From contig CAZHIA010000002.1 of the NCBI GenBank assembly GCA_964532425.1, positions 13,945 through 77,944 of the forward strand: a DNA stretch of 64,000 nt, written 5' to 3'. A program made the position numbers and the translations under genes. Of this stretch, positions 9,897 to 32,809 are shown piece after piece. The stretch is from an uncultured Candidatus Saccharibacteria bacterium. GTDB lineage: Bacteria > Patescibacteriota > Doudnabacteria > UBA920. The notes beneath the pieces are model-generated. The model ran no database searches. It saw nothing but the letters and a program-made list of their open reading frames with translations, and had not been told where the DNA came from. The first letter of the stretch is position 1. Each line of letters begins with the position of its first letter.

Positions 9897-10499
9897 TTAG
9901 TTGCCCCCAACACAAAGAGTATAATTAGAATTCCAATGCCAACTGGCATTGGCACCAGTATATTTGCCCAAACAATAATTTACTAATGGCCCCAACTCAT
10001 ACCCGCCTGGATAAATGCCGTTAGGATTTGAGAATCTGGAAACATTGGAGTTATCCTCAAAAGCAGAAACCCCAACACCATAATACTGACCATTGCTCGT
10101 GGAAGGATTGTTGTAATAATAGTAACGATTGCTGTCATTGACCGGATCCTTGGGCATCTGGCTCATATATGGCTTGAGGGTATCAGCTAGCCAGCACCAG
10201 CGGTTGCACCAGCCGCATCCAGCCTGGGCAGCCACCACCGCCCCACCGTTAACAACAGGTCCGCCGCACGTGCCCGACCAATCCACGCTGTATGCATCGT
10301 CTGAAAGAGGATAGGTGCCATTATGGTCAGCCGCGTACAATTCCAGAGCCTTCGAGATTTGAGTAATATCCGTTGCACGCTTGGCATCACGGGCTTTCAC
10401 ACGGGCGCTGTTTAAAGCCACCATGACGGTACTCGCAAGTAAACCGATGATGGATATAACCACGAGCAGCTCGATGAGTGTAAAACCCTTTTGGCTCAT
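9897..10499 (-). CDS. type IV pilin (prepilin-type N-terminal cleavage/methylation domain)
   Basis: MSQKGFTLIELLVVISIIGLLA class III signal; Cys pairs in C-terminal part. Confidence 0.8.
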   Translation of the reverse strand: MSQKGFTLIELLVVISIIGLLASTVMVALNSARVKARDAKRATDITQISKALELYAADHNGTYPLSDDAYSVDWSGTCGGPVVNGGAVVAAQAGCGWCNRWCWLADTLKPYMSQMPKDPVNDSNRYYYYNNPSTSNGQYYGVGVSAFEDNSNVSRFSNPNGIYPGGYELGPLVNYCLGKYTGANASWHWNSNYTLCVGGN

Positions 10500-16871: not shown

Positions 16872-17123
16872 ATGTCCGAGCAGGAACGGCTGACGTTCCT
16901 GGCTTCTAAAGACCTGCTTTCCATTAGTGAAGCAGCCAAGTTGACCCCGTATTCAGGGGAATATTTAAGTCTTTTAGCCAGAAATGGACGATTGCCGGCC
17001 ATTAAGATCGCAAGAAATTGGCTTACTACGCGTAAGGCCGTTTTGTCGTACCTGCAGGAACAACAACAAAAGCACCAGAATATTGTCGAACAACTCAGAC
17101 AGCTGCAGGAGGAGGTTATATGA
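16872..17123 (+). CDS. excisionase-family helix-turn-helix DNA-binding protein
   Basis: [47 protein letters not shown] resembles HTH_17/excisionase-type DNA-binding domain; stop overlaps next start (ATGA). Confidence 0.55.
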
Positions 17124-20100
17124 AGACCAAATTCCTGTTTGCTTGGATGTGCGGCACGCTGGTTCTCGCCGAACTCTTAGTGTCTTTCAGGGCCGCTCAA
17201 GATCAGCTCGTTACGTTTATTCCCCATGCGGTACACCGGGCGGTGCCGACCATTTTCCAAGATGCATCAAACTTTGTCTCCTTTTCCGAACGGATGGCTG
17301 GAGAAAAAAACCGGTTGTTGGTACAATTAGGATTTACGATTGAAAATGATCTGCAACATACCGGCCTCATAGCCAAATCTTTCCGTAACGATTCGGTTGA
17401 ACCATACCGCGCCATGGCAAATGCCATTCAAACCGGAATTCGGAAGCAAGCAAAAGACATAGAGTATGCTACCAGGTATGGCACGATTACCCTTAAAATG
17501 TGGAAGAGCTTCTTAGCCTGGGAAAACCAAGCAGTGGTAACTGCGGGCAACTGGGCATCATCAGATCTTAGGACTGACATTACGGCGCCATATCAAACCG
17601 GAGCTGTAGCAATCAGGCAAGGGTTATACGAACAGTCCCGGCAGGTTGGTAGGTTCTGGCAGGGAATAGTAGAAAACGCCGGTTCAATCGACATTGCAGT
17701 CAATGGCTTAGGGGAGCAACCGAATTTACCGCAACGGCTTGTTGCTACTAACGTTTTTCATCTCAAAAAACAAACTGAGGCCACAAATTCAACCCCTCAA
17801 CTTTCCCTTAACGCTCAAAACGGAAAAGTCCTTGCAGCCAAAACTTCGACAAACACGAATACTGGCAAACCAGTAGCACAACCTACATACCAGCCGGGCG
17901 ATACCATGGCTATGGTCAACCAGCGATTGGATGAATACACCCAATTCTTAGCTAGCTTTGGGTATGGGGTGAATGGGAATAATGGGTCGAATGGGGTGAA
18001 TACGACCAATCAGGCATCGGGAAATCAAACCACGGTCATCAACAATGTTCCGCTCGTTACCTATGTCCCGTCCAACCAATCGCAGAACTTCTCTGGTGGC
18101 TCCCTGGCCGGCTTTACCCAGCTTGGGGCAGACGGGTTGACCGTTTCCACCGCCAGAATCAACTCCAGTTTAAATCTTTCAGGCCCGGCCACACTCTCAT
18201 CACTGACGGTGAGTGGTTTGTCCTCTCTTGCTACAACTACGGTCACCGGCACCCTGACTGCAGAACATTTTGTCGGCGACGGAAGCGGCCTAACCGGCTT
18301 ACCCAGTGGTTCGCAATGGACCACCAGCGGAAGCGATATTTATTACAACAGCGGGAATGTCAGTATCGGAACAACTACACCGACTGCAAAATTCCAGGTT
18401 GATGGGACCTCTTATCTTGGATCTAATGCATCACAAGTTGCTAGTTATTTATCCGGTTGGGCCACAGCTGAAGCGTTCGTATACGGTCACACTAGCGGTA
18501 CCGATACCAGCTGGTACGAACGAAACGGTTTATATGTAGTAGAAGAAGATCATTCAGTGGATTCAAACACCCCTTATGTATATGGGGCCACCATTCAAGG
18601 AAACGGATATGGAACCGGTGATTATTCGGAAATTGCAGGTTTAAAAGTGTGGGGAACCGTAAACAACTCCACGACAATGTCCAATCAATATAGCAGTTTA
18701 TACGGGATTCAGACTTTTGGTGGAGCATATGACGATTCATCGGTTCAAAACGCTTATGGAGTTTGGTCAACCGGCGTCTACAACGGCAATTCAAATGTGA
18801 ATAACTTGTACGCCATATATTCCAGAAGGGCCGGCTATAGTCCCGGAGGCAAAGTAAATAACAGTTACGGAGTTTATATACAAAATCCAGTAGGGGGTGC
18901 TACTGGTAATAATTATGGATTGTTTTTGGATAACATGTCGGCCGGCACATCGACAAATTTTTCTATATATTCCGCTGGAGGTACCAGTTATTTTGCCGGC
19001 AGCATAGGAGTCGGCACAACTTCTCCTGTCGCGAGTTTGACAATAAAAGGAAGTGGTGGAACAAATCCGTTTGTGATTGCGTCATCGGCCGGGTCGACTT
19101 TATTAGCAGTTACACAGTCCGGCAACGTTGGTATAAACACTTCAACCCCGGCTTTCAAATTGGATGTTAATGGCATAATAAATGCTACTGCCCTGTACGT
19201 GAATGGCTCGCCTTACATTGGCAGCCAGTGGGCCACGAACGGATCGAGTGTCTACTACAATGGCGGCAATGTTGGCATTGGGACGACAACGCCGCAAGCC
19301 AAGCTCGAAGTTGACGCTACCGTAACCCCGACAGGAAGCGAGCTGGTGAGTAACGGTTCGTTCACCGGTGGAACTGCAGGGTGGACGCTTGGGTCCAATG
19401 TCAGTTATGGCACGAATAATGTCGTGAGCACCTACGCTGGCGGTGACCCATCGTTAAGTACGAATTTTAATACGGAAGCTGGTAAAACTTATTTGCTTAC
19501 CTTTACTGTTTCCAATGCCAACGCGAATTCATATTTGTATTTCTACTTGGACAACAACCGGCTTTCTTATAATTCGGGCCAAGTCTCGAATCAGACGTAT
19601 AGCGTGGCTTTTAAAACCGACTTTACCGGAACCGAAACAATACATTTTGACCAATGGAATTACACGAATGGGGAGACGTGGACTTTAGATAATGTATCCA
19701 TTAAGGAAATAAATCCCACAAAACCCTCTCTGCTCGTTAAAAATTATAATGGTGAGACGGTTCTTTCCGCTGGCGGGGATTTATATGGGAATACCGTATT
19801 CGGATCAGCTGCACTGAGCTCAAACACCACCGGTGGTAATAATCTCGCCTTAGGCAATAGAGCATTATTGTCCAATACGTCCGGCTGGGAAAATATAGCG
19901 TTAGGTGCGAATGCTTTATTCGCAAATACAACAGGAACGCATAACATTGCTGTTGGTCCGGCGCTGGCTAGCAACACGACAGGTGATGACAATTATGCGT
20001 TTGGAATCGGTTCCATGGCTAATAACACGAGCGGCAGCGCTAATATTGCCTTGGGACACATGACGCTTAACAGCAATCAAACAGGAAGTTTTAACATAGC

Positions 20101-23100
20101 TGTCGGAGCGGGTTCTTTATGGGATATGACTGGTGGTACCAATGTAACAGGGATTATAACCGGAACCGCGTGGGGACGGTCAGCTTATCCTTTTCCGTCA
20201 ATTTTCCGCGGAACACAAAAACAACTTGACAGTTCAGTACTTATTGGGCCACGAGCAACAACCGGTGTCAACAGCGATTCCGCATCTATGCTTACAAATG
20301 TTGTGGCGATAAACGGTATGGCCACACAGAGCAACCAGGTCGTCATCGGCAATAGCGCTACTCAGCAAATGATATTGTATGGCAATGTCGGGATTGGGAC
20401 CACTACCCCTTCCGCGACTTTGCATATAGAGGGAGCTCAGCCGCAGATTTTATCCAAAGCCACGGACCCGGCACAATCAGCTTCCTGGTCCCTGACAACT
20501 CCCGGCAACAACGTCTCATTCACGGCATACCAATATGGCAGCAGTTATGTCGGTACGTATTTGGGATTGAACGCTACCGGAGTTTCGGTACTTCGCGCCG
20601 CAGGCGGATCGGCAGGCATGGTCATCAACGAAGAATCCAACGCACCTATTTTGTTCGGCACCAGCAACCACGAACAAATGCGCATCGAGGGCGGCGGCAA
20701 TGTAGGCATTGGTATTACCGTACCCCAGGCCAAACTGCATGTATCCGGAGGCAATGTCCTGTTTGAAACCGGTAATGTCAGCATTGGCACCACCACAACA
20801 CCCAGCAAATTATTAGTCCAAGGAGCAACCGTTGACCCCACCGCTCCAGTCTTGAGCGTACTGAACCATTCAGCTGCAAATGTATTGACTGTGCTCGATA
20901 GTGGTAATATCGGTATTGGCACCACCACTCCTTCCCAGCTTTTGACGGTAGGCAATAATAACCAATTTACTGTGAGTACCACTGGTGCTGTAACCGGGCT
21001 TAGCTTTACGGATGTAAATGGTTCGCAAATGGGCGGCGGTGTATTAAATGTAGCCGGAGGAGGCAACGCGACTTATATTAATTCTTCCGGCATCAGTTTG
21101 CAGACCGGCAGCAGTATGAGGATTTTATGGAACGGCCAAAGCGTGGGATTGTCGAGCGGCGCGTCAGGAAAGCTTTATGTTGGTAACGGGACTATTGGTG
21201 ATTATTCGGGAACTTTAATCGCCGGCAACGTCGGCATCGGGACGACATCACCATCACAATTACTTGCGGTGGGAAATAATAATCAGGTCACGGTAGATTC
21301 GAATGGCTTGATTACAATGACAAAACCGAGCAGCGCTTTACCCGCAACGTATTTATATTTTAAAGTGCCAGGTTCCGCGGATTGGGGCGTATCGTTGGGC
21401 GCTGAAACTATTCCGAATTGGTATTTTGGTAGAGCGTCTACCCGCCAGACATCGGACTATTTTTGGAGAGCTAACTGGAATACCGCAGGCGTTGCGGTGA
21501 ACACATTCCAGAATGCGGATTCGGGTAACGGCTACGGTGGGGCTGCACTGACTACTATGAATATTCAAGGCATAACAAATCAGACGGGGGATTTGTTTGC
21601 AATTAGCACTTCCAGCTCGAGCCCAATGGGTAATTTGTTTAAGGTCCAGCAAAACGGGAATGTCGGGATTGGGACGACGAGTCCTATTGTAAAATTAGAT
21701 GTCTGGGGAAATTTGAATGTTGCAACGTCTTCCACATCGACTTTGTATGTAGATGCGGGCACAGGCAGGGTGGGGATTGGGAAGAATAATCCGAGCTATG
21801 CACTGGATGTAACGGGTCCAATACGTTCGACCAGTAATATTTACGGCGGCTGGGCAATGCTCCAACGCTTAGTCGATTCTGACAATAATTCTTATTACGT
21901 TAACCCCGACGCCAACGGCAGTGGATTTTCCGCAGTTTTAGCCGGCAACGTCGGCATTGGCACCACCACACCTAACCAAACTTTGGAAGTTGTTGGTAGT
22001 TTCGGGATTAGCAATGGGAGTAACAATACCAGGGTTGTCATGACTCCGGTATTCGCCAACACGTTGCAATTCAGTTATGGCGGTACGGGGGCTAACATTG
22101 GCAGCCTTACCAATGGTTCCTACTTATTGTTAGGTCCATCGGGCAGCACTACCACTCCGGTATACGCCTTTACCAATGACGCCAATACCGGCATTGGCAC
22201 TGCAGGGAACAGCAGTGACACCATCAGTTTAATTACCGCTGGCTCCAGCAGGGTATTTATTGATGCTCTTGGGAATGTCGGCATCGGGACGACGACACCA
22301 AAGGCAACACTGCATGTGGAGGGATCGCTAAATATAAACAACGGATCAATTACGCACACGACAAGCACCAATTTGACCACTATTGATTATTTACAGGTCG
22401 GGGCGAGCGGGTTTGAGACAGACGCCGGCATGGTGACATGGACAGATATGCCGGTGACGGCAAGCTCTGCCACTACCACGATTTTAAGCTACACCGCTTC
22501 TATGAACGGCGCGCCAGTGTTAACGGTGTATGCCAACGGCGACGGTGCGGGCGGCATCCAGAATGCGGCGGTCGGCATCGGCACCACTACGCCAACCTTA
22601 GGACCCTTAACGGTCAGTAACGGCGCTTATGTTACTGCCGGCGGAACCTGGACCAACTCTTCTGATAGGAATAAGAAAGAGAACTTTACCGATGTAGACC
22701 CGTTCGAGGTCCTGCAAAAAATCAACTTGCTTAGCATTCAACAGTGGAACTACAAGAACGAAACCGCTTCCACTACGCACATCGGCCCGGTCGCACAGGA
22801 CTTTTACGATAAGTTCCACCTGGGCGGCAGCGACCTTTCGATTTCCACTATCGACCCTGCCGGTGTGGCACTCTTAGGCATGCAGGGCTTTAGCAAAATT
22901 TTTGGATTGCAAGGCAACTTAAACGGCAGTTTATCATCCACCACCCCCATAACTATCACCCGCCAAGTTAACTTTGCTGGCGACACCGTGGGTGAGGCTA
23001 AAATTTTAGCCGGCGCAACCTCAGTCAGAGTGAATTTTGACCAGCCGTACGAGTATCAGCCAATTGTTACCCTAACACCTTTGGACTTCGTTGACGGCGC

Positions 23101-23536
23101 ATACCGCGTGACCGCAGCAGATGCCAGTGGCTTTACCATTGAGCTGCAGAAAATCCAAAGCATAGATGCCTCATTTAACTGGCATGCATTCGGCGGCAAA
23201 GGTACGCAGCTAACCGTATCCAACGGCAGCAAATCGAAAATAATTTTGGTGCCTGCAGGCAAAGGCCAAGTCGGCCAAACCAATCCCGCACTTACTGTAA
23301 CAACCGGAAACGGTTCCCCGCAGCCGACTACTACCACAACCGAAAACGAGAATAAAGGCACGGTAGCCGGCGCAAACACCGGAACTGAAGAACAACCGGC
23401 AACCGGAATTACGGAACCTGCAGCGAAGACTGATGGCACCATCACGACTCCGGAGCCGGCAGGAACCTCAACTCCTGACACCGGCACACAGGAAACTGCC
23501 AGCCCGGAAACCCCGACTGGGACGGCGGGGGAATAG
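17120..23536 (+). CDS. giant membrane-anchored fibre protein: tail-fibre-like G-I-G-T-T-T-P repeats, CBM-like module, Hep_Hag-like repeats, C-terminal Peptidase_S74-like intramolecular chaperone domain, Thr/Pro/Glu-rich tail
   Basis: GGAGGAGG SD; N-terminal TM helix; about 14 copies of GNVGIGTT(T/S)PxAKLxV; [12 protein letters not shown] module; SDRNKKENF...[10 protein letters not shown] near C-terminus. Confidence 0.85.
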
Positions 23537-23676: not shown

Positions 23677-24309
23677 ATGGGTGGTTATAGGGATTTAAAA
23701 TCTTTCCAAGGAACGGAGATTATTTTTGATTTGACTGTGGAATTTTTATCCCGCTATATAAAAAATAACCGCAAGCTTTGGGAACAGATGGAAGGAGCCG
23801 CACGGAGCGGCAAGCAAAATTTAGCTGAAGGTTCAAAATACATGAACACTTCCCGCGCCTCTGAAATCAGGTTGATTGAGGTTAACCGTGGCAGCTTGGA
23901 AGAACTCTTGCTTGACTACGAAGATTGTCTGCGCAAGAATCATTTACCCATTTGGAGCATGCAGGACCACCGCGTGACCAAAATCAGGAAACTAGCTTAT
24001 GCTCCCAATAAGTCCTATAAAACCTATTTATCCTATTTGGAAAATCTAGAAACAGCTGCCAATTGTTTAATTACCATCATCAATCAAACTAACTATCTCT
24101 TAGACCGGCAAATGAGAAGCCTGAAAACCGATGTAATTGAAAAGGGCGACATGAGGGAAAGACTGTCACAAGAACGCAATGCATTTAAGAAAACTCAACT
24201 AGCCAACCCCGGACCATCGCTCGACGAATTTCTAAAAGGGTTCGGAATGAAACGTTTAGAAAACGGCCAAGTGATAAAAATTGAGGAATATGATTCAAAG
24301 AAACAATAA
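23677..24309 (+). CDS. four-helix-bundle protein (23S rRNA intervening-sequence protein family), extended C-terminus
   Basis: YRDLKSFQ...QNLAEGSKY...RLIEVNRGSLEEL pattern; paralog at 39760. Confidence 0.5.
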   Translation: MGGYRDLKSFQGTEIIFDLTVEFLSRYIKNNRKLWEQMEGAARSGKQNLAEGSKYMNTSRASEIRLIEVNRGSLEELLLDYEDCLRKNHLPIWSMQDHRVTKIRKLAYAPNKSYKTYLSYLENLETAANCLITIINQTNYLLDRQMRSLKTDVIEKGDMRERLSQERNAFKKTQLANPGPSLDEFLKGFGMKRLENGQVIKIEEYDSKKQ

Positions 24310-24319
24310 GACAAATAGG

Positions 24320-26452
24320 ATGAATAGGTCAGATATGACCAATAAGACCTATAGGACGTATAAGACCTTTATTGCTGCAATGATTGCGGCTGTTTTTCTG
24401 CTGCCCGGTTTTTCTGCCCAGGCTGCAATGATAAAAAAACAGCCGAATAATTTGGGACTGAAAGCTTATTGGAATTTTGACGAAGGCAAGGGGATAAAGG
24501 CTGGGGATTTTAGCGGGAATGGCAACAAAGGAACCCTATCCAACACCACCTGGACTAATGGCAAGCACGGCAAGGCTTTAAATTTTAACGGCAGCAACAG
24601 CGCCATGTCAGTTGCCAGCTACACTAACATGAGCCCAGGCGCCAACAACTTTTCTATAGCTTTTTGGATCAAAACTTCGGGCTATGGCGATTTAATTATA
24701 GGTGCGGACGGCAATGCGGGCACCACGCTGCAAGGCTACGGCCTGGCTATTCCTTTCGGCTGGGGCTGTGCCACACCCGGCCAGCTGTATTTTAATTTTT
24801 CTAATGGCGCTGCACGCGAAGTAGGTTTTTGTTCCAGCAGTATCATTAACGATGGTGGCTGGCATCATGTTTCTATAACTGTCACCCGCGGCGATAAAGT
24901 AAAATTTTACATAGACGGCAACTTGGACAACTCCTTAAACACTACCTTAAACGGTTCCGTACTCCTCCACCATTTCAGCATAGGACAAATTGCCTGGCAA
25001 GGCTGGCTGAACGGATTAATGGATGATATCCGCCTTTATAACCGCGCGTTGTCCGCAAGCGAGGCACTCACCTTATATCAAAGCGGCCAGGAAACCATAG
25101 GTGGCAACCAGGCTGGCCGCGGGACAGACGGTTTAGTAGGGTATTGGTCATTGAATGCCAGTGATGTTTCAGGATCGTCAGCAACCGATGCCAGCGGCAA
25201 AGGCAGAACCTTAACACTATTTAACGGTCCTGCAGCAGCCACTGGACGGTTTGGGCAGGCTTTGTCTTTTAACGGCAGTACGCAGTACGCCAGCACGAGC
25301 AATGCTTTTTCCGAAATCGGCGTGAGCAACCAGGCTTACACGGTTTCAGCCTGGGTCAAAATAGCGCAGGGCAAAACCCAGGGCGATATAATTCATACTT
25401 CCAGTTTGTCAAACGGTTCAGGCTGGTGTTTGGCGCCGCTTAAAATCAACGGCTCAAAAATTGAAACCACCAGCTGGAGTTCCGGTGATGTTACAATTTC
25501 CGGTAATACCACTTTAAAAGCCGATGCTTGGTATTTTTTGGCCGCCACCTGGTCTGCTTCCGGCGGACTACGCGCCTATGTTAATGGAAATTTAGATGCC
25601 TCGACAACTCAGAACACTTATACCGCCAGCGGAGTATCTAATTATATATTTTTGGGCGGGCACGGCGGAGGCTGCGCTTCTGACCGCGGCTATTTTACCG
25701 GAACTATAGATGAACCGCGGGTTTATAGTCGCGCTTTATCACAAACCGAATTAACCGCGCTTTATAATCTTGGCAAAAAAACCGAGAACACCTCACCAAC
25801 ATCGCGCTTAAATGACGGACTCATTGGCTACTGGAACTTTAACGGCGCGAATATGACGGACACACTTGCTTTAGACTCATCCGGTAACGGTTATACCGCC
25901 ACTCTTGCCGGTAACACCGCCAAAGCCATCGGCAAAATAGGGCAAGGGTTATATTTTGACGGCAGCGGCGATTACGTGGCAGTACCTTATACGGCGGCTT
26001 TGGCGCCTGCAAGCGCCATCAGTTATGGCGCTTGGTTTAAATCCTCCGATGTTTCCGCCAATACGCGCATTATTTCCAAAACCGAATTTGGCGGGTTTAA
26101 CCTAGGGCTCAACGACACGGTTTCCGGCATATCCGCCACCGTCAATACAACAAACGGGGGTTATCATTATGTAAATTACCCATCGCCGCAAAACAATCGC
26201 TGGTACCACGCGTTTGTCACCTATGACGGCAGCAATGTGAGTCTGTATGTGGATGGGCAGCTAGCCAGCAGCACGCCAGCTACCGGATTAGCCAACTTCA
26301 CCCGCACCAACCCTTTATGCATCGGGTCAGAACCCAATTCAACAGCGTGCACGTACGGCAACTATTTGACGGGCTTAATTGATGAAGTGCGCATTTATAA
26401 CCGCGCTCTGGCACCGGCTGAGGTTAAACAATTATACATAATGGGAAAATAG
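24320..26452 (+). CDS. secreted protein with three tandem LamG-like (concanavalin A-like lectin) domains
   Basis: Signal peptide ...AAVFLLPGFSAQA; three repeats each ending D(D/E)(I/V/P)R(L/I/V)YNRAL(S/A)..E(L/V)..LY; start ambiguous (24290/24320/24335). Confidence 0.7.
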   Translation: MNRSDMTNKTYRTYKTFIAAMIAAVFLLPGFSAQAAMIKKQPNNLGLKAYWNFDEGKGIKAGDFSGNGNKGTLSNTTWTNGKHGKALNFNGSNSAMSVASYTNMSPGANNFSIAFWIKTSGYGDLIIGADGNAGTTLQGYGLAIPFGWGCATPGQLYFNFSNGAAREVGFCSSSIINDGGWHHVSITVTRGDKVKFYIDGNLDNSLNTTLNGSVLLHHFSIGQIAWQGWLNGLMDDIRLYNRALSASEALTLYQSGQETIGGNQAGRGTDGLVGYWSLNASDVSGSSATDASGKGRTLTLFNGPAAATGRFGQALSFNGSTQYASTSNAFSEIGVSNQAYTVSAWVKIAQGKTQGDIIHTSSLSNGSGWCLAPLKINGSKIETTSWSSGDVTISGNTTLKADAWYFLAATWSASGGLRAYVNGNLDASTTQNTYTASGVSNYIFLGGHGGGCASDRGYFTGTIDEPRVYSRALSQTELTALYNLGKKTENTSPTSRLNDGLIGYWNFNGANMTDTLALDSSGNGYTATLAGNTAKAIGKIGQGLYFDGSGDYVAVPYTAALAPASAISYGAWFKSSDVSANTRIISKTEFGGFNLGLNDTVSGISATVNTTNGGYHYVNYPSPQNNRWYHAFVTYDGSNVSLYVDGQLASSTPATGLANFTRTNPLCIGSEPNSTACTYGNYLTGLIDEVRIYNRALAPAEVKQLYIMGK

Positions 26453-26509
26453 AACTACGAAGCTACAAATAGGGGACACTACAAAAAACTACGAAATCCC
26501 AAACAACGA

Positions 26510-26543
26510 AAACACCCCGACAAAAAGTCGGGGTGTTTTTCTT
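26510..26543. terminator. bidirectional intrinsic terminator (LamG operon / rpsA)
   Basis: acaccccgac aaaaa gtcggggtgt + ttttctt. Confidence 0.65.
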
Positions 26544-32733: not shown

Positions 32734-32809
32734 GGGCGTATAGCTCAGTTGGTAGAGCGGACGTCTTATACACGTCTGGTCCTAGGTTCGAGTCCTAGTA
32801 CGCCCACCA
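32734..32809 (+). tRNA. tRNA with anticodon TAT (tRNA-Ile UAU, AUA-decoding), CCA encoded
   Basis: GGGCGTATAGCTCAGTTGGTAGAGCGGACGTCTTATACACGTCTGGTCCTAGGTTCGAGTCCTAGTACGCCCACCA; anticodon loop CTTATAC. Confidence 0.8.

Follow-up and report, generated by a model that had tools for sequence, protein, structure and literature searches.

A membrane-anchored giant protein of a Doudnabacteria-like bacterium as a probable cell-surface fibre built from phage tail-fibre modules

A stretch of 64,000 nucleotides (nt) from an uncultured Candidatus Saccharibacteria bacterium (GenBank assembly GCA_964532425.1, contig CAZHIA010000002.1, positions 13,945 to 77,944 of the forward strand), referred to here in its entirety as the window, carries a single open reading frame (ORF) encoding a giant protein of 2,138 amino acids (aa). 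This protein is in good probability a cell-surface fibre of a Doudnabacteria-like member of the Patescibacteria, or candidate phyla radiation (CPR), assembled from the modules of phage tail fibres. It probably serves as a surface adhesin for a host cell and would be a candidate host-recognition factor, not a new kind of machine. The protein is of a known kind, that of the Peptidase_S74 (S74) tail-fibre-domain proteins, among which the MAT fibres of Bdellovibrio are its closest characterised relatives (Caulton et al. 2024; PMC10769870). Its identification is carried by a repeated capping-loop motif found otherwise only in MAT crystal structures among the entries of the PDB, by a C-terminal S74 domain with its catalytic residues in place, and by an N-terminal membrane anchor that stands behind a cytoplasmic helix-turn-helix (HTH) domain in fused homologues.

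The fibre body and its capping loops

The body of the protein is punctuated by a motif ending in -x-A-K-L-x-V, of which a preceding reading of the DNA, made without database searches (the sequence-only reading), had estimated about 14 copies. Exactly 14 were counted, with first residues (the equivalent of G-N-V-G-I-G) spread from aa 412 to aa 1816 (Table 1), along with one further, degenerate copy near aa 1688. A back-translated form of the motif (GGNAAYGTNGGNATHGGNACNAC), allowed up to two mismatches, finds 10 matches, all on the plus strand and inside the fibre ORF, against an expectation of 0.00 from 100 shuffles. Because the copies are just 60-90% identical as DNA, the repeat is constrained as a peptide and does not reflect recent DNA duplication. 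The nucleotide repeats had been described as near-identical, which is an overstatement, although the positions given for them agree with those recovered at up to three mismatches (19266, 20382, 21225, 21657, 21945 and 22272); a 22-mer quoted as their exact sequence does not occur, its best counterpart at 19266 differing by one mismatch.

A profile built from the 14 motif units was compared with the whole PDB and matched five distinct sequences, all of them crystal structures of Bdellovibrio MAT fibres and nothing else. The strongest are 8OND (Bd2133; E 5.3e-16), 8OL4/8ONF (Bd2439; E 1.3e-8) and 8OJN/8ONB/8ONC (Bd3182; E 2.9e-7), followed more weakly by 8OML (E 3.7e-5) and 8ON4 (E 0.003; Bd1334). 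The full-length sequence on its own also matches 8OND (Bd2133), through the motif region, and the motif stands in the same register as the published alignment of MAT capping loops (LVGIGTATPAAPLH, AVGIGTTNPSGILH and, in MyRF, RVGINTDRPDEALV). In the crystal structures of the trimeric MAT fibres, this motif forms the 'capping loops' found on the edges of an intertwined β-helix (Caulton et al. 2024). Tail-fibre and tail-spike families of the PHROG collection match four segments of the body, where PHROG 9942 and 18345 (both tail fibre) are found, and none matches within aa 1-430.

The composition of the protein is heavily weighted toward Gly, Thr, Ser and Asn, together 44% of its residues, with a single Cys in the entire chain. 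Its 93 homologues are mostly 1,200-3,600 aa in length, and several of them, from Patescibacteria, Paceibacterota, Taylorbacteria and Bdellovibrionota (Bdellovibrio, Pseudobdellovibrio and Halobacteriovorax), carry the name 'tail fiber domain-containing protein'. Such S74-bearing proteins are a class that databases already recognise, and at the level of annotation the fibre gene remains one of them. A search of the whole protein against NCBIfam returned no match. No identical record turned up for the 2,138-aa product, nor for the GyrA and Laminin_G (LamG) proteins of the window; the genome of origin is represented at least in part, through the 83-aa HTH protein described below.

The C-terminal chaperone domain

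Peptidase_S74 is recognised near the C-terminus at 41 bits with the whole protein and 44.7 bits with the isolated segment, against a Pfam (PF13884) cut-off of 22, and PHROG 1980 and 6921 (both tail fibre) match at the same domain. The domain opens with a sequence that fits the SDxxxK signature, placing S1848 and K1853 as the putative Ser-Lys pair; SDxxxK is the catalytic motif of Peptidase_S74 (Caulton et al. 2024). In the K1F endosialidase, the T5 pb1 protein and Bd3182, the S74 domain acts as a chaperone for the folding of the trimer and then cleaves itself from the product at the Ser residue (Caulton et al. 2024). If the present domain behaves likewise, aa 1847 would be the last residue of the mature fibre. 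The body delimited in the sequence-only reading ended at 22640, 21 nt ahead of the S74 domain at 22661, and so corresponds in essence to the predicted mature fibre.

The region beyond the S74 domain consists of a β-rich module and a low-complexity tail. The module gives a non-significant, below-threshold match to H_lectin (E 0.046), and a sequence search of the PDB with the post-S74 region found no relative, only chance-level matches. The alignment to the homologue P0001 runs into this region as far as aa 2075. If cleavage occurs, the region is predicted to leave together with the chaperone.

The earlier proposal of an extracellular fibre of the phage tail-fibre kind is borne out by the exclusive match of the motif profile to MAT structures, the PHROG matches in four body segments and the terminal S74 domain. 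Of the profile families named alongside it, those of fibres (PHROG tail fibre and Peptidase_S74) are matched, but CBM_4_9 and YadA_head/Hep_Hag of Pfam are not.

Table 1. Positions of the fibre gene, its modules and the adjoining genes within the window.
Feature	Nucleotides	Strand	Residues	Basis
HTH_17 gene (83 aa); TGA stop overlaps fibre ATG (ATGA); Shine-Dalgarno GGAGGAGG at 17108-17115	16872..17123	+		Sequence reading, Pfam
Giant fibre gene	17120..23536	+	1-2138	Single ORF; database homologues
N-terminal signal-anchor transmembrane helix with conserved acidic E18	17129..17188	+	4-23	Hydrophobicity; internal equivalent in HTH-fused homologues
Lineage-specific juxtamembrane region	17189..17806	+	24-229	HMMER, metagenome scan, Pfam, PHROG
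Conserved stalk base, ending in ...W..IYY ahead of the first capping loop	17807..18352	+	230-411	HMMER, homologue alignment
Fibre body with 14 capping-loop motifs	18353..22606	+		Motif positions, PDB profile search, PHROG
Capping-loop starts	18353, 18998, 19121, 19265, 20381, 20696, 20771, 20903, 21224, 21656, 21764, 21944, 22271, 22565	+	412, 627, 668, 716, 1088, 1193, 1218, 1262, 1369, 1513, 1549, 1609, 1718, 1816	Motif positions
Six N-x-Y-G-[IV]-x repeats, period 15-19 aa, β-rich block	18701..19018	+	528-633	Regular-expression listing
CBM-like β-sandwich insert (predicted fold)	19340..19711	+	~741-864	AlphaFold2 model, Foldseek
Seven 16/17-aa repeats, N-[ILYT]-[AV]-x-G-x-x-[AS]-[LM]-x-[SAN]-N-[TQ]-[TS]-G; putative tail-spike-type β-solenoid	19790..20143	+	891-1008	Repeat listing, PHROG, tblastn
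Peptidase_S74 intramolecular chaperone/autoprotease domain, S1848-D-R-N-K-K1853	22661..22807	+	1848-1896	Pfam PF13884, motif reading
Post-S74 β-rich module (~1897-2045) and T/P/G/E-rich low-complexity tail (~2046-2138)	22808..23533	+	~1897-2138	Weak H_lectin, P0001 alignment, composition
210-aa ORF between fibre and LamG genes; weak, below-threshold 23S_rRNA_IVP match	23677-24309	+		Pfam
LamG gene; secreted product with three Laminin_G_3 domains	24320..26452	+		Pfam 4e-78, three stretches; signal-peptide-like N-terminus

The membrane anchor and the base of the fibre

A single N-terminal hydrophobic helix had been noted, and aa 4-23 do form the sole strongly hydrophobic 19-mer of the protein, with a Kyte-Doolittle mean of 1.97 compared to 1.19 for the next best. 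In 11 homologues, the equivalent of this helix is internal and follows a cytoplasmic HTH domain. This placement shows, at the level of sequence homology, that the helix would act as an N-in signal anchor with no cleaved signal peptide, in agreement with its earlier description as an anchor. The acidic residue E18 within the helix (nt 17171-17173; A-E/T-E) is kept in L165, L166, P0215 and P0076, and its conservation hints at an intramembrane partner.

The segment that follows the anchor, aa 24-229, is almost without relatives in profile searches and has no match in Pfam or PHROG. An exhaustive HMMER search with aa 1-380 against 1.84 billion representatives found 35 cluster representatives, nearly all of them matching aa ~230-380 only, near their own N-termini, and just a few of the matches extend to aa 122-200. 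A metagenome scan with aa 1-430, aimed at relatives of the N-terminus, left aa 1-345 without relatives and recovered only a ubiquitous motif at aa 346-430. The stalk base is by these measures the conserved portion of the N-terminal part, and P0001 is 33% identical to it over aa 250-430.

Cassettes within the fibre body

Three cassettes interrupt the succession of capping loops. The first, a block of six repeats with a Tyr-Gly core at aa 528-633, matches no specific family in Pfam or PHROG. A block similar to these repeats is duplicated in the relative L165.

The second cassette is a carbohydrate-binding module (CBM)-like insert, in which the strings quoted in the sequence-only reading were located at aa 745-756 and aa 791-815. 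An AlphaFold2 monomer model (m01103c604668; aa 725-1090, from an alignment of 22 sequences) gives mean pLDDT values of 74-91 in blocks of 10 residues over aa ~774-864. Foldseek relates this model to the PDB entries of CBM16 (2ZEX), CBM22 (4XUO) and CBM4 (1GUI), to CBM35 and to 2Y6K, with E values of 1.6e-4 to 1e-3, a probability of 1.0 and target-normalised TM-scores of 0.41-0.60; among the viral models of BFVD it matches 'Carbohydrate-binding, CenC-like' proteins of Caudovirales at E 3e-6. A β-jelly-roll fold of the CBM4/16/22 type is therefore supported for the predicted structure, but membership of a family by hidden Markov model is not: the insert has no Pfam CBM_4_9 (PF02018) match, only sub-threshold ones to the related galactose-binding-like families Mann_GBD_bact (E 0.011) and DUF642 (E 0.05). 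The 'L-[IV]-x-N-G-x-F...GW' signature at its N-terminal side aligns to a CBM of glycoside hydrolase (GH) family 10 at E 0.57 only, and a PDB sequence search with a profile of the CBM-like module plus the 17-aa repeats gave chance-level matches only. A gamma-carbonic-anhydrase-like protein and antibody J-regions made up the chance matches of this search and of those with the repeat profile and the post-S74 region. The earlier likening to a CBM_4_9 module is upheld in its fold and fails in its family. Compared to the CBM_4_9-type modules (CBM4, CBM16 and CBM22), with which it shares the predicted jelly-roll, the insert also sits inside a fibre instead of on an enzyme, and it yielded no assignment of binding residues.

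Modules of the CBM4/16/22 type normally accompany glycoside hydrolases, and S74 chaperones were first described on endosialidases. From this arises the alternative that the protein is an enzyme-bearing, trimeric β-helix tailspike that degrades the capsule or cell-wall polysaccharide of a host, its CBM-like module targeting the substrate, so that it would provide parasitic access and not adhesion alone. The block at aa 528-633 could be a β-helix, and GH87 and arabinanase structures stand among the top Foldseek rows. The GH87 matches, however, have TM-scores of 0.15-0.21 with a root-mean-square deviation of ~27 Å and are no real match of fold; the arabinanase match spans only the CBM-sized part of that enzyme, ~140 columns; and no catalytic domain is matched in Pfam, NCBIfam or PHROG. 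A degradative tailspike is accordingly judged unlikely next to a fibre that adheres.

The third cassette is a run of seven units beginning at aa 891, 908, 925, 942, 958, 975 and 992. Such N-x-A-x-G repeats had been seen before and given a period of 15-16 aa; the units are there, but their period is 17 aa, with one of 16. The module matches PHROG 6002 (E 4.4e-23), PHROG 4636, a 'tail spike protein' (E 6.7e-17), and PHROG 23837 (E 1.1e-16), and in tblastn it is 35-52% identical to genes annotated as tail fibre or tail spike in phages of Pelagibacter, Flavobacterium and Roseobacter and in SPO1-like phages of Bacillus. Its homologues number more than 2,300, most of them proteins of 400-640 aa that end in Peptidase_S74. 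AlphaFold2 predicts a solenoid of short strands (pLDDT ~70-83). Taken as sequence, the repeats are supported as a β-solenoid module of phage tail spikes and tail fibres, the second of the two likenesses offered for them in the sequence-only reading; the first, to Hep_Hag/YadA, is sustained neither by Pfam nor by the PDB profile search or the fold search. Together with the CBM-like module, they recur as one cassette in the homologues P0094, P0099, P0113, P0169 and P0061.

The HTH_17 gene and its coupling to the fibre

Immediately upstream of the fibre gene lies a short gene for an HTH_17 protein, the stop codon of which overlaps the fibre start codon (Table 1). Neither this gene nor the Tyr-Gly block was mentioned in the sequence-only reading. 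The HTH_17 family is matched at 28.2 bits against a Pfam cut-off of 27 (E 2.4e-6), and standalone homologues form more than 40 clusters, most of them exactly 83 aa long. An overlap of 4 nt with the giant gene that follows also occurs in L164-L167, from two other assemblies and a related species, in which it is GTGA, and the HTH-fibre pair occupies the same chromosomal site, after a gene for an M28 peptidase, in independent assemblies. With this arrangement, the fibre gene would share a transcript with the strictly conserved HTH_17 gene and be coupled to it in translation.

In other homologues the two are one protein. The HTH domain makes up the N-terminal ~80 aa of P0001 (59% identity), P0076, P0240, P0220, P0048, P0025, P0090 and P0021, and is followed in each by the transmembrane helix and a giant extracellular chain. 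A frameshift or an assembly artefact was considered as the cause of the split between the HTH and fibre genes in the window and was ruled out, since a length of 83 aa and an overlap of 4 nt are seen again in independent assemblies and in a related species. In a related Doudnabacteria metagenome-assembled genome (L083 5995-6015), the ORFs of the HTH protein and of the fibre (P0040) lie in different frames with 10 consecutive G between them, which could represent either a switch for phase variation by slipped-strand mispairing or an error of assembly in a homopolymer.

The occurrence of HTH_17, transmembrane helix and giant S74 fibre as a single polypeptide in many CPR lineages is a 'Rosetta stone' pattern, and because of it a more ambitious reading was entertained, in which the fibre and the HTH_17 protein form one contact-sensing unit and the binding of the hypervariable fibre, or tension upon it, would alter gene expression by a signal passed through the membrane, in the manner of ToxR-like regulators. 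As an extrapolation from gene arrangement and domain fusion, this is unlikely.

Divergence and genomic context of the fibre gene

The boundary between the two coupled genes is also a boundary in their rates of change. In the relative L165, the HTH protein is 100% identical, the 14 nucleotide changes in its gene all being synonymous, and right after the gene junction the identity of the fibre falls to 50% over aa 1-642 and 45% over aa 1148-1993. Between these, other modules stand in place of aa 643-1147, the stretch that holds the CBM-like module and the 17-aa repeats. The more distant P0001 aligns to the fibre over aa 250-430 and 1077-2075 only. From these comparisons the fibre reads as a mosaic protein, evolving fast through the swapping of modules in the manner of a phage receptor-binding protein, beside a strongly constrained HTH partner.

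The surroundings of the gene are those of a chromosome. The window holds genes for initiation factor IF-2, a DHH phosphoesterase, a pilin-like protein, seven tRNAs, the M28 peptidase, ribosomal protein S1, GyrA, tyrosyl-tRNA synthetase and a class A penicillin-binding protein (PBP1). Its GyrA is 83-88% identical to those of metagenome-assembled genomes titled Candidatus Doudnabacteria, Patescibacteria group and 'uncultured Saccharibacteria', and homologues of the fibre likewise occur in chromosomal contexts. Given its housekeeping neighbours and the GyrA identity, the fibre gene is a chromosomal gene of a Doudnabacteria-like bacterium of the Patescibacteria (CPR).

This setting bears directly on a second alternative, that the gene encodes the tail fibre of a virion, a tailocin or a contractile injection system belonging to an integrated or degraded mobile element, and is not anchored to the cell. 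All of the fibre modules do match tail fibre or tail spike families of phages, the S74 chaperone is classically a feature of phage tail fibres, and the abrupt divergence of the fibre from its conserved flank is that seen in phage receptor-binding genes. Yet the ORFs scanned on either side of the fibre gene are all housekeeping, with no phage capsid, tail, baseplate, sheath, integrase, terminase or contractile-system domain among them, and the HTH-fibre pair keeps its place after the M28 peptidase gene in independent assemblies. The protein also begins with a membrane anchor where a phage attachment domain would be expected, PHROG matching nothing in aa 1-430, and has homologues in which that anchor follows a cytoplasmic HTH domain. 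A mobile-element origin for a free, unanchored tail fibre is for these reasons considered very unlikely, and a fibre anchored to the cell is preferred.

Downstream, the fibre gene is followed by the 210-aa ORF and by the gene for a secreted LamG protein (Table 1). P0001 is immediately followed by a co-linear LamG homologue (L081 18237-20258; 32% identity, E 3e-65) among neighbours that otherwise differ, which suggests that the fibre-LamG pair is conserved, and the LamG protein may belong to the fibre system. Only one strong hairpin of the terminator type follows the fibre gene, at 26508-26540, a scan of this kind being weak evidence. The possibility that the fibre is the target of a diversity-generating retroelement (DGR) was raised because the homologue P0076 is followed by bAvd and reverse transcriptase genes in a DGR-like arrangement (L082 7441-9315), and because the 210-aa ORF after the fibre gene weakly resembles 23S_rRNA_IVP. 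It was ruled out: tblastn with the reverse transcriptase and Avd neighbouring P0076 found no homologue in the window, and the gene contains no long repeat pair of the template/variable kind.

Two further observations concern the surroundings. A type IV pilin-like gene (N_methyl motif, T2SSG) is encoded on the minus strand at 9897-10499, ~7 kb upstream of the fibre; no other organelle of host attachment in CPR bacteria has been studied as well as type IV pili, which are also the main candidates for that role. A tRNA-Ile with a TAT (UAU) anticodon lies at 32734-32809 on the plus strand, a departure from most bacteria, which read AUA by means of a lysidine-modified CAU tRNA instead.

Relationship to known fibres and adhesins

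The S74 group of MAT fibres, exemplified by Bd3182 and Bd2133 (Caulton et al. 2024), shares with the present protein the capping-loop motif V-G-x-G/N-small-x-x-P-x-x-x-L, a long and modular β-helix body, the mosaic exchange of modules, a terminal Peptidase_S74 with SDxxxK and a chromosomal location in a bacterium living on other bacteria. The Halobacteriovorax marinus protein in the list of MATs equals the Halobacteriovorax homologue P0072 in length (1,915 aa) and is likened to it by length alone. MATs are surface-displayed adhesins for the recognition of prey, one of which binds prey glycans, and all 21 of them carry a conserved β-rich domain of ~130 aa directly after the signal peptide (Caulton et al. 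2024). The Bdellovibrionota homologues retrieved with the fibre share this MAT-type N-terminal domain among themselves at E 1e-27 to 1e-113. In place of a cleaved signal peptide and N-domain, the fibre described here has a signal-anchor helix and a lineage-specific region; it is also about twice the usual length, contains the CBM-like insert and the 17-aa repeat solenoid, is coupled to HTH_17 and belongs to another phylum with another envelope.

Phage fibres and tailspikes with a C-terminal chaperone, namely the K1F endosialidase, the L-shaped T5 pb1 fibre and SPO1 gp2.52-type proteins, have in common with it the S74 domain, the PHROG families, the 17-aa module and a fast, modular evolution. 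They differ in that the present gene lies in neither a phage genome nor a prophage, in that a membrane anchor replaces the N-terminus by which such fibres attach to the virion, and in length, the present protein being 2-4 times longer than is typical.

The giant surface-targeted proteins of Absconditicoccaceae, themselves CPR episymbionts, offer a further comparison (PMC13059738). These likewise exceed 1,500 aa and combine a transmembrane or signal segment with adhesion-type domains, but the domains are of the FN3, integrin, ConA and fibrinogen types, and text searches of that study found no tail-fibre or S74 architecture (PMC13059738). Such large surface proteins have been proposed as candidates for host recognition in CPR (PMC13059738).

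Trimeric autotransporter adhesins (type Vc) resemble the protein in their short G/A/N/S/T-rich repeats, in a predicted solenoid of two strands per turn, in a weak profile-profile similarity and in a trimeric fibre, which is here predicted; they differ in the period of the YadA repeat, 14 aa against 17, and in their YadA_anchor β-barrel, which Pfam does not find here, the C-terminus consisting of S74 and a low-complexity tail. That the protein is itself an autotransporter-type adhesin with a YadA-like head is extremely improbable: many homologues of the repeat module do carry the JGI label 'trimeric autotransporter adhesin', and P0001, P0035 and P0067 hold true YadA_head repeats (14 aa, S-x-A-x-G type) elsewhere in their chains, to which hhalign relates the 17-aa profile at a probability of 79% with a 3-residue gap in every repeat, but the fibre has no YadA_head, stalk or anchor match in Pfam, the isolated repeat segment, searched out to E 10, gives no match to YadA_head/Hep_Hag (PF05658), a PDB search with the repeat profile, taken equally far, yields chance-level matches and no autotransporter head, Foldseek with a dedicated repeat-only model returns generic solenoids at E 0.07 or worse and no YadA head, and CPR bacteria are not known to have an outer membrane in which a type Vc barrel could be held.

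Proposed working of the fibre

The modules can be assembled into a provisional account of how the fibre is built and displayed. The helix at aa 4-23 would serve as an uncleaved signal anchor and, following export through Sec, hold the N-terminus in the cytoplasmic membrane, from which the juxtamembrane region and the stalk base would carry the chain outward through the envelope. Beyond these, ~1,450 aa of predicted β-structure would form fibre units delimited by the 14 capping loops, presumably as a trimer, as in the MATs. The body would bear the Tyr-Gly block, the CBM-like sandwich, three copies of which would project sideways from each trimer, and a solenoid of seven turns. As the CBM-like module sits mid-chain, it is likely to be a lateral insert and not a distal tip, the sequence-only reading having proposed a glycan-binding knob. 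The S74 domain would nucleate the folding of the trimer and then cut at S1848 using K1853, as do its counterparts in the K1F endosialidase, T5 pb1 and Bd3182. Cleavage would shed the last ~290 aa and expose the distal β-helix, aa ~1720-1847, as the tip.

The mature fibre would then comprise ~1,820 aa. Bd3182 measures ~55 nm for ~780 aa and the tip of Bd2133 15 nm for 370 aa (Caulton et al. 2024), and scaling from these two gives a length of roughly 70-130 nm, beyond the several tens of nm first estimated. Judging from the lifestyle of an episymbiont, the function of the MATs and the CBM-like fold, the fibre may bind glycans on the surface of the host bacterium.

Several results weigh against this account. 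The MAT N-terminal domain is absent, the first 400 aa of the fibre matching no Bdellovibrionota homologue (best E 2.1). With this domain missing and an anchor in its place, the fibre is not a MAT in the strict sense; it appears instead to set a MAT-type body and C-terminus upon a different base. Neither a CBM nor a lectin family of Pfam is matched above threshold, and glycan binding is predicted from resemblance in fold only. The AlphaFold2 models of the monomer are only moderate, with a mean pLDDT of 66. Searches of the literature returned no report of S74 or tail-fibre-like proteins in CPR, and the functional assignment is therefore an analogy drawn from Bdellovibrio and phages.

Implications for the biology of CPR bacteria

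How CPR episymbionts find and hold their hosts is largely unknown, and the locus described here presents a concrete alternative to type IV pili in the form of a membrane-anchored, phage-style receptor-binding fibre. A CPR cell is only a few hundred nanometres across, and the fibre that it would display is possibly ~100 nm long. The architecture of the MAT-type fibre is extended by this locus from the predatory Bdellovibrionota to the CPR, with a different solution to the problem of anchoring. The replacement of the MAT N-domain by an anchor, the coupling or fusion to HTH_17, the CBM-like insert in mid-fibre and the occurrence in CPR are not described in the literature searched. The locus further suggests a connection, as yet undescribed, of giant surface fibres with a small HTH protein. 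If contact sensing were true, it would give these ultrasmall episymbionts a direct signal of being attached to a host, and the fibre would be a determinant of host range much as in phages.

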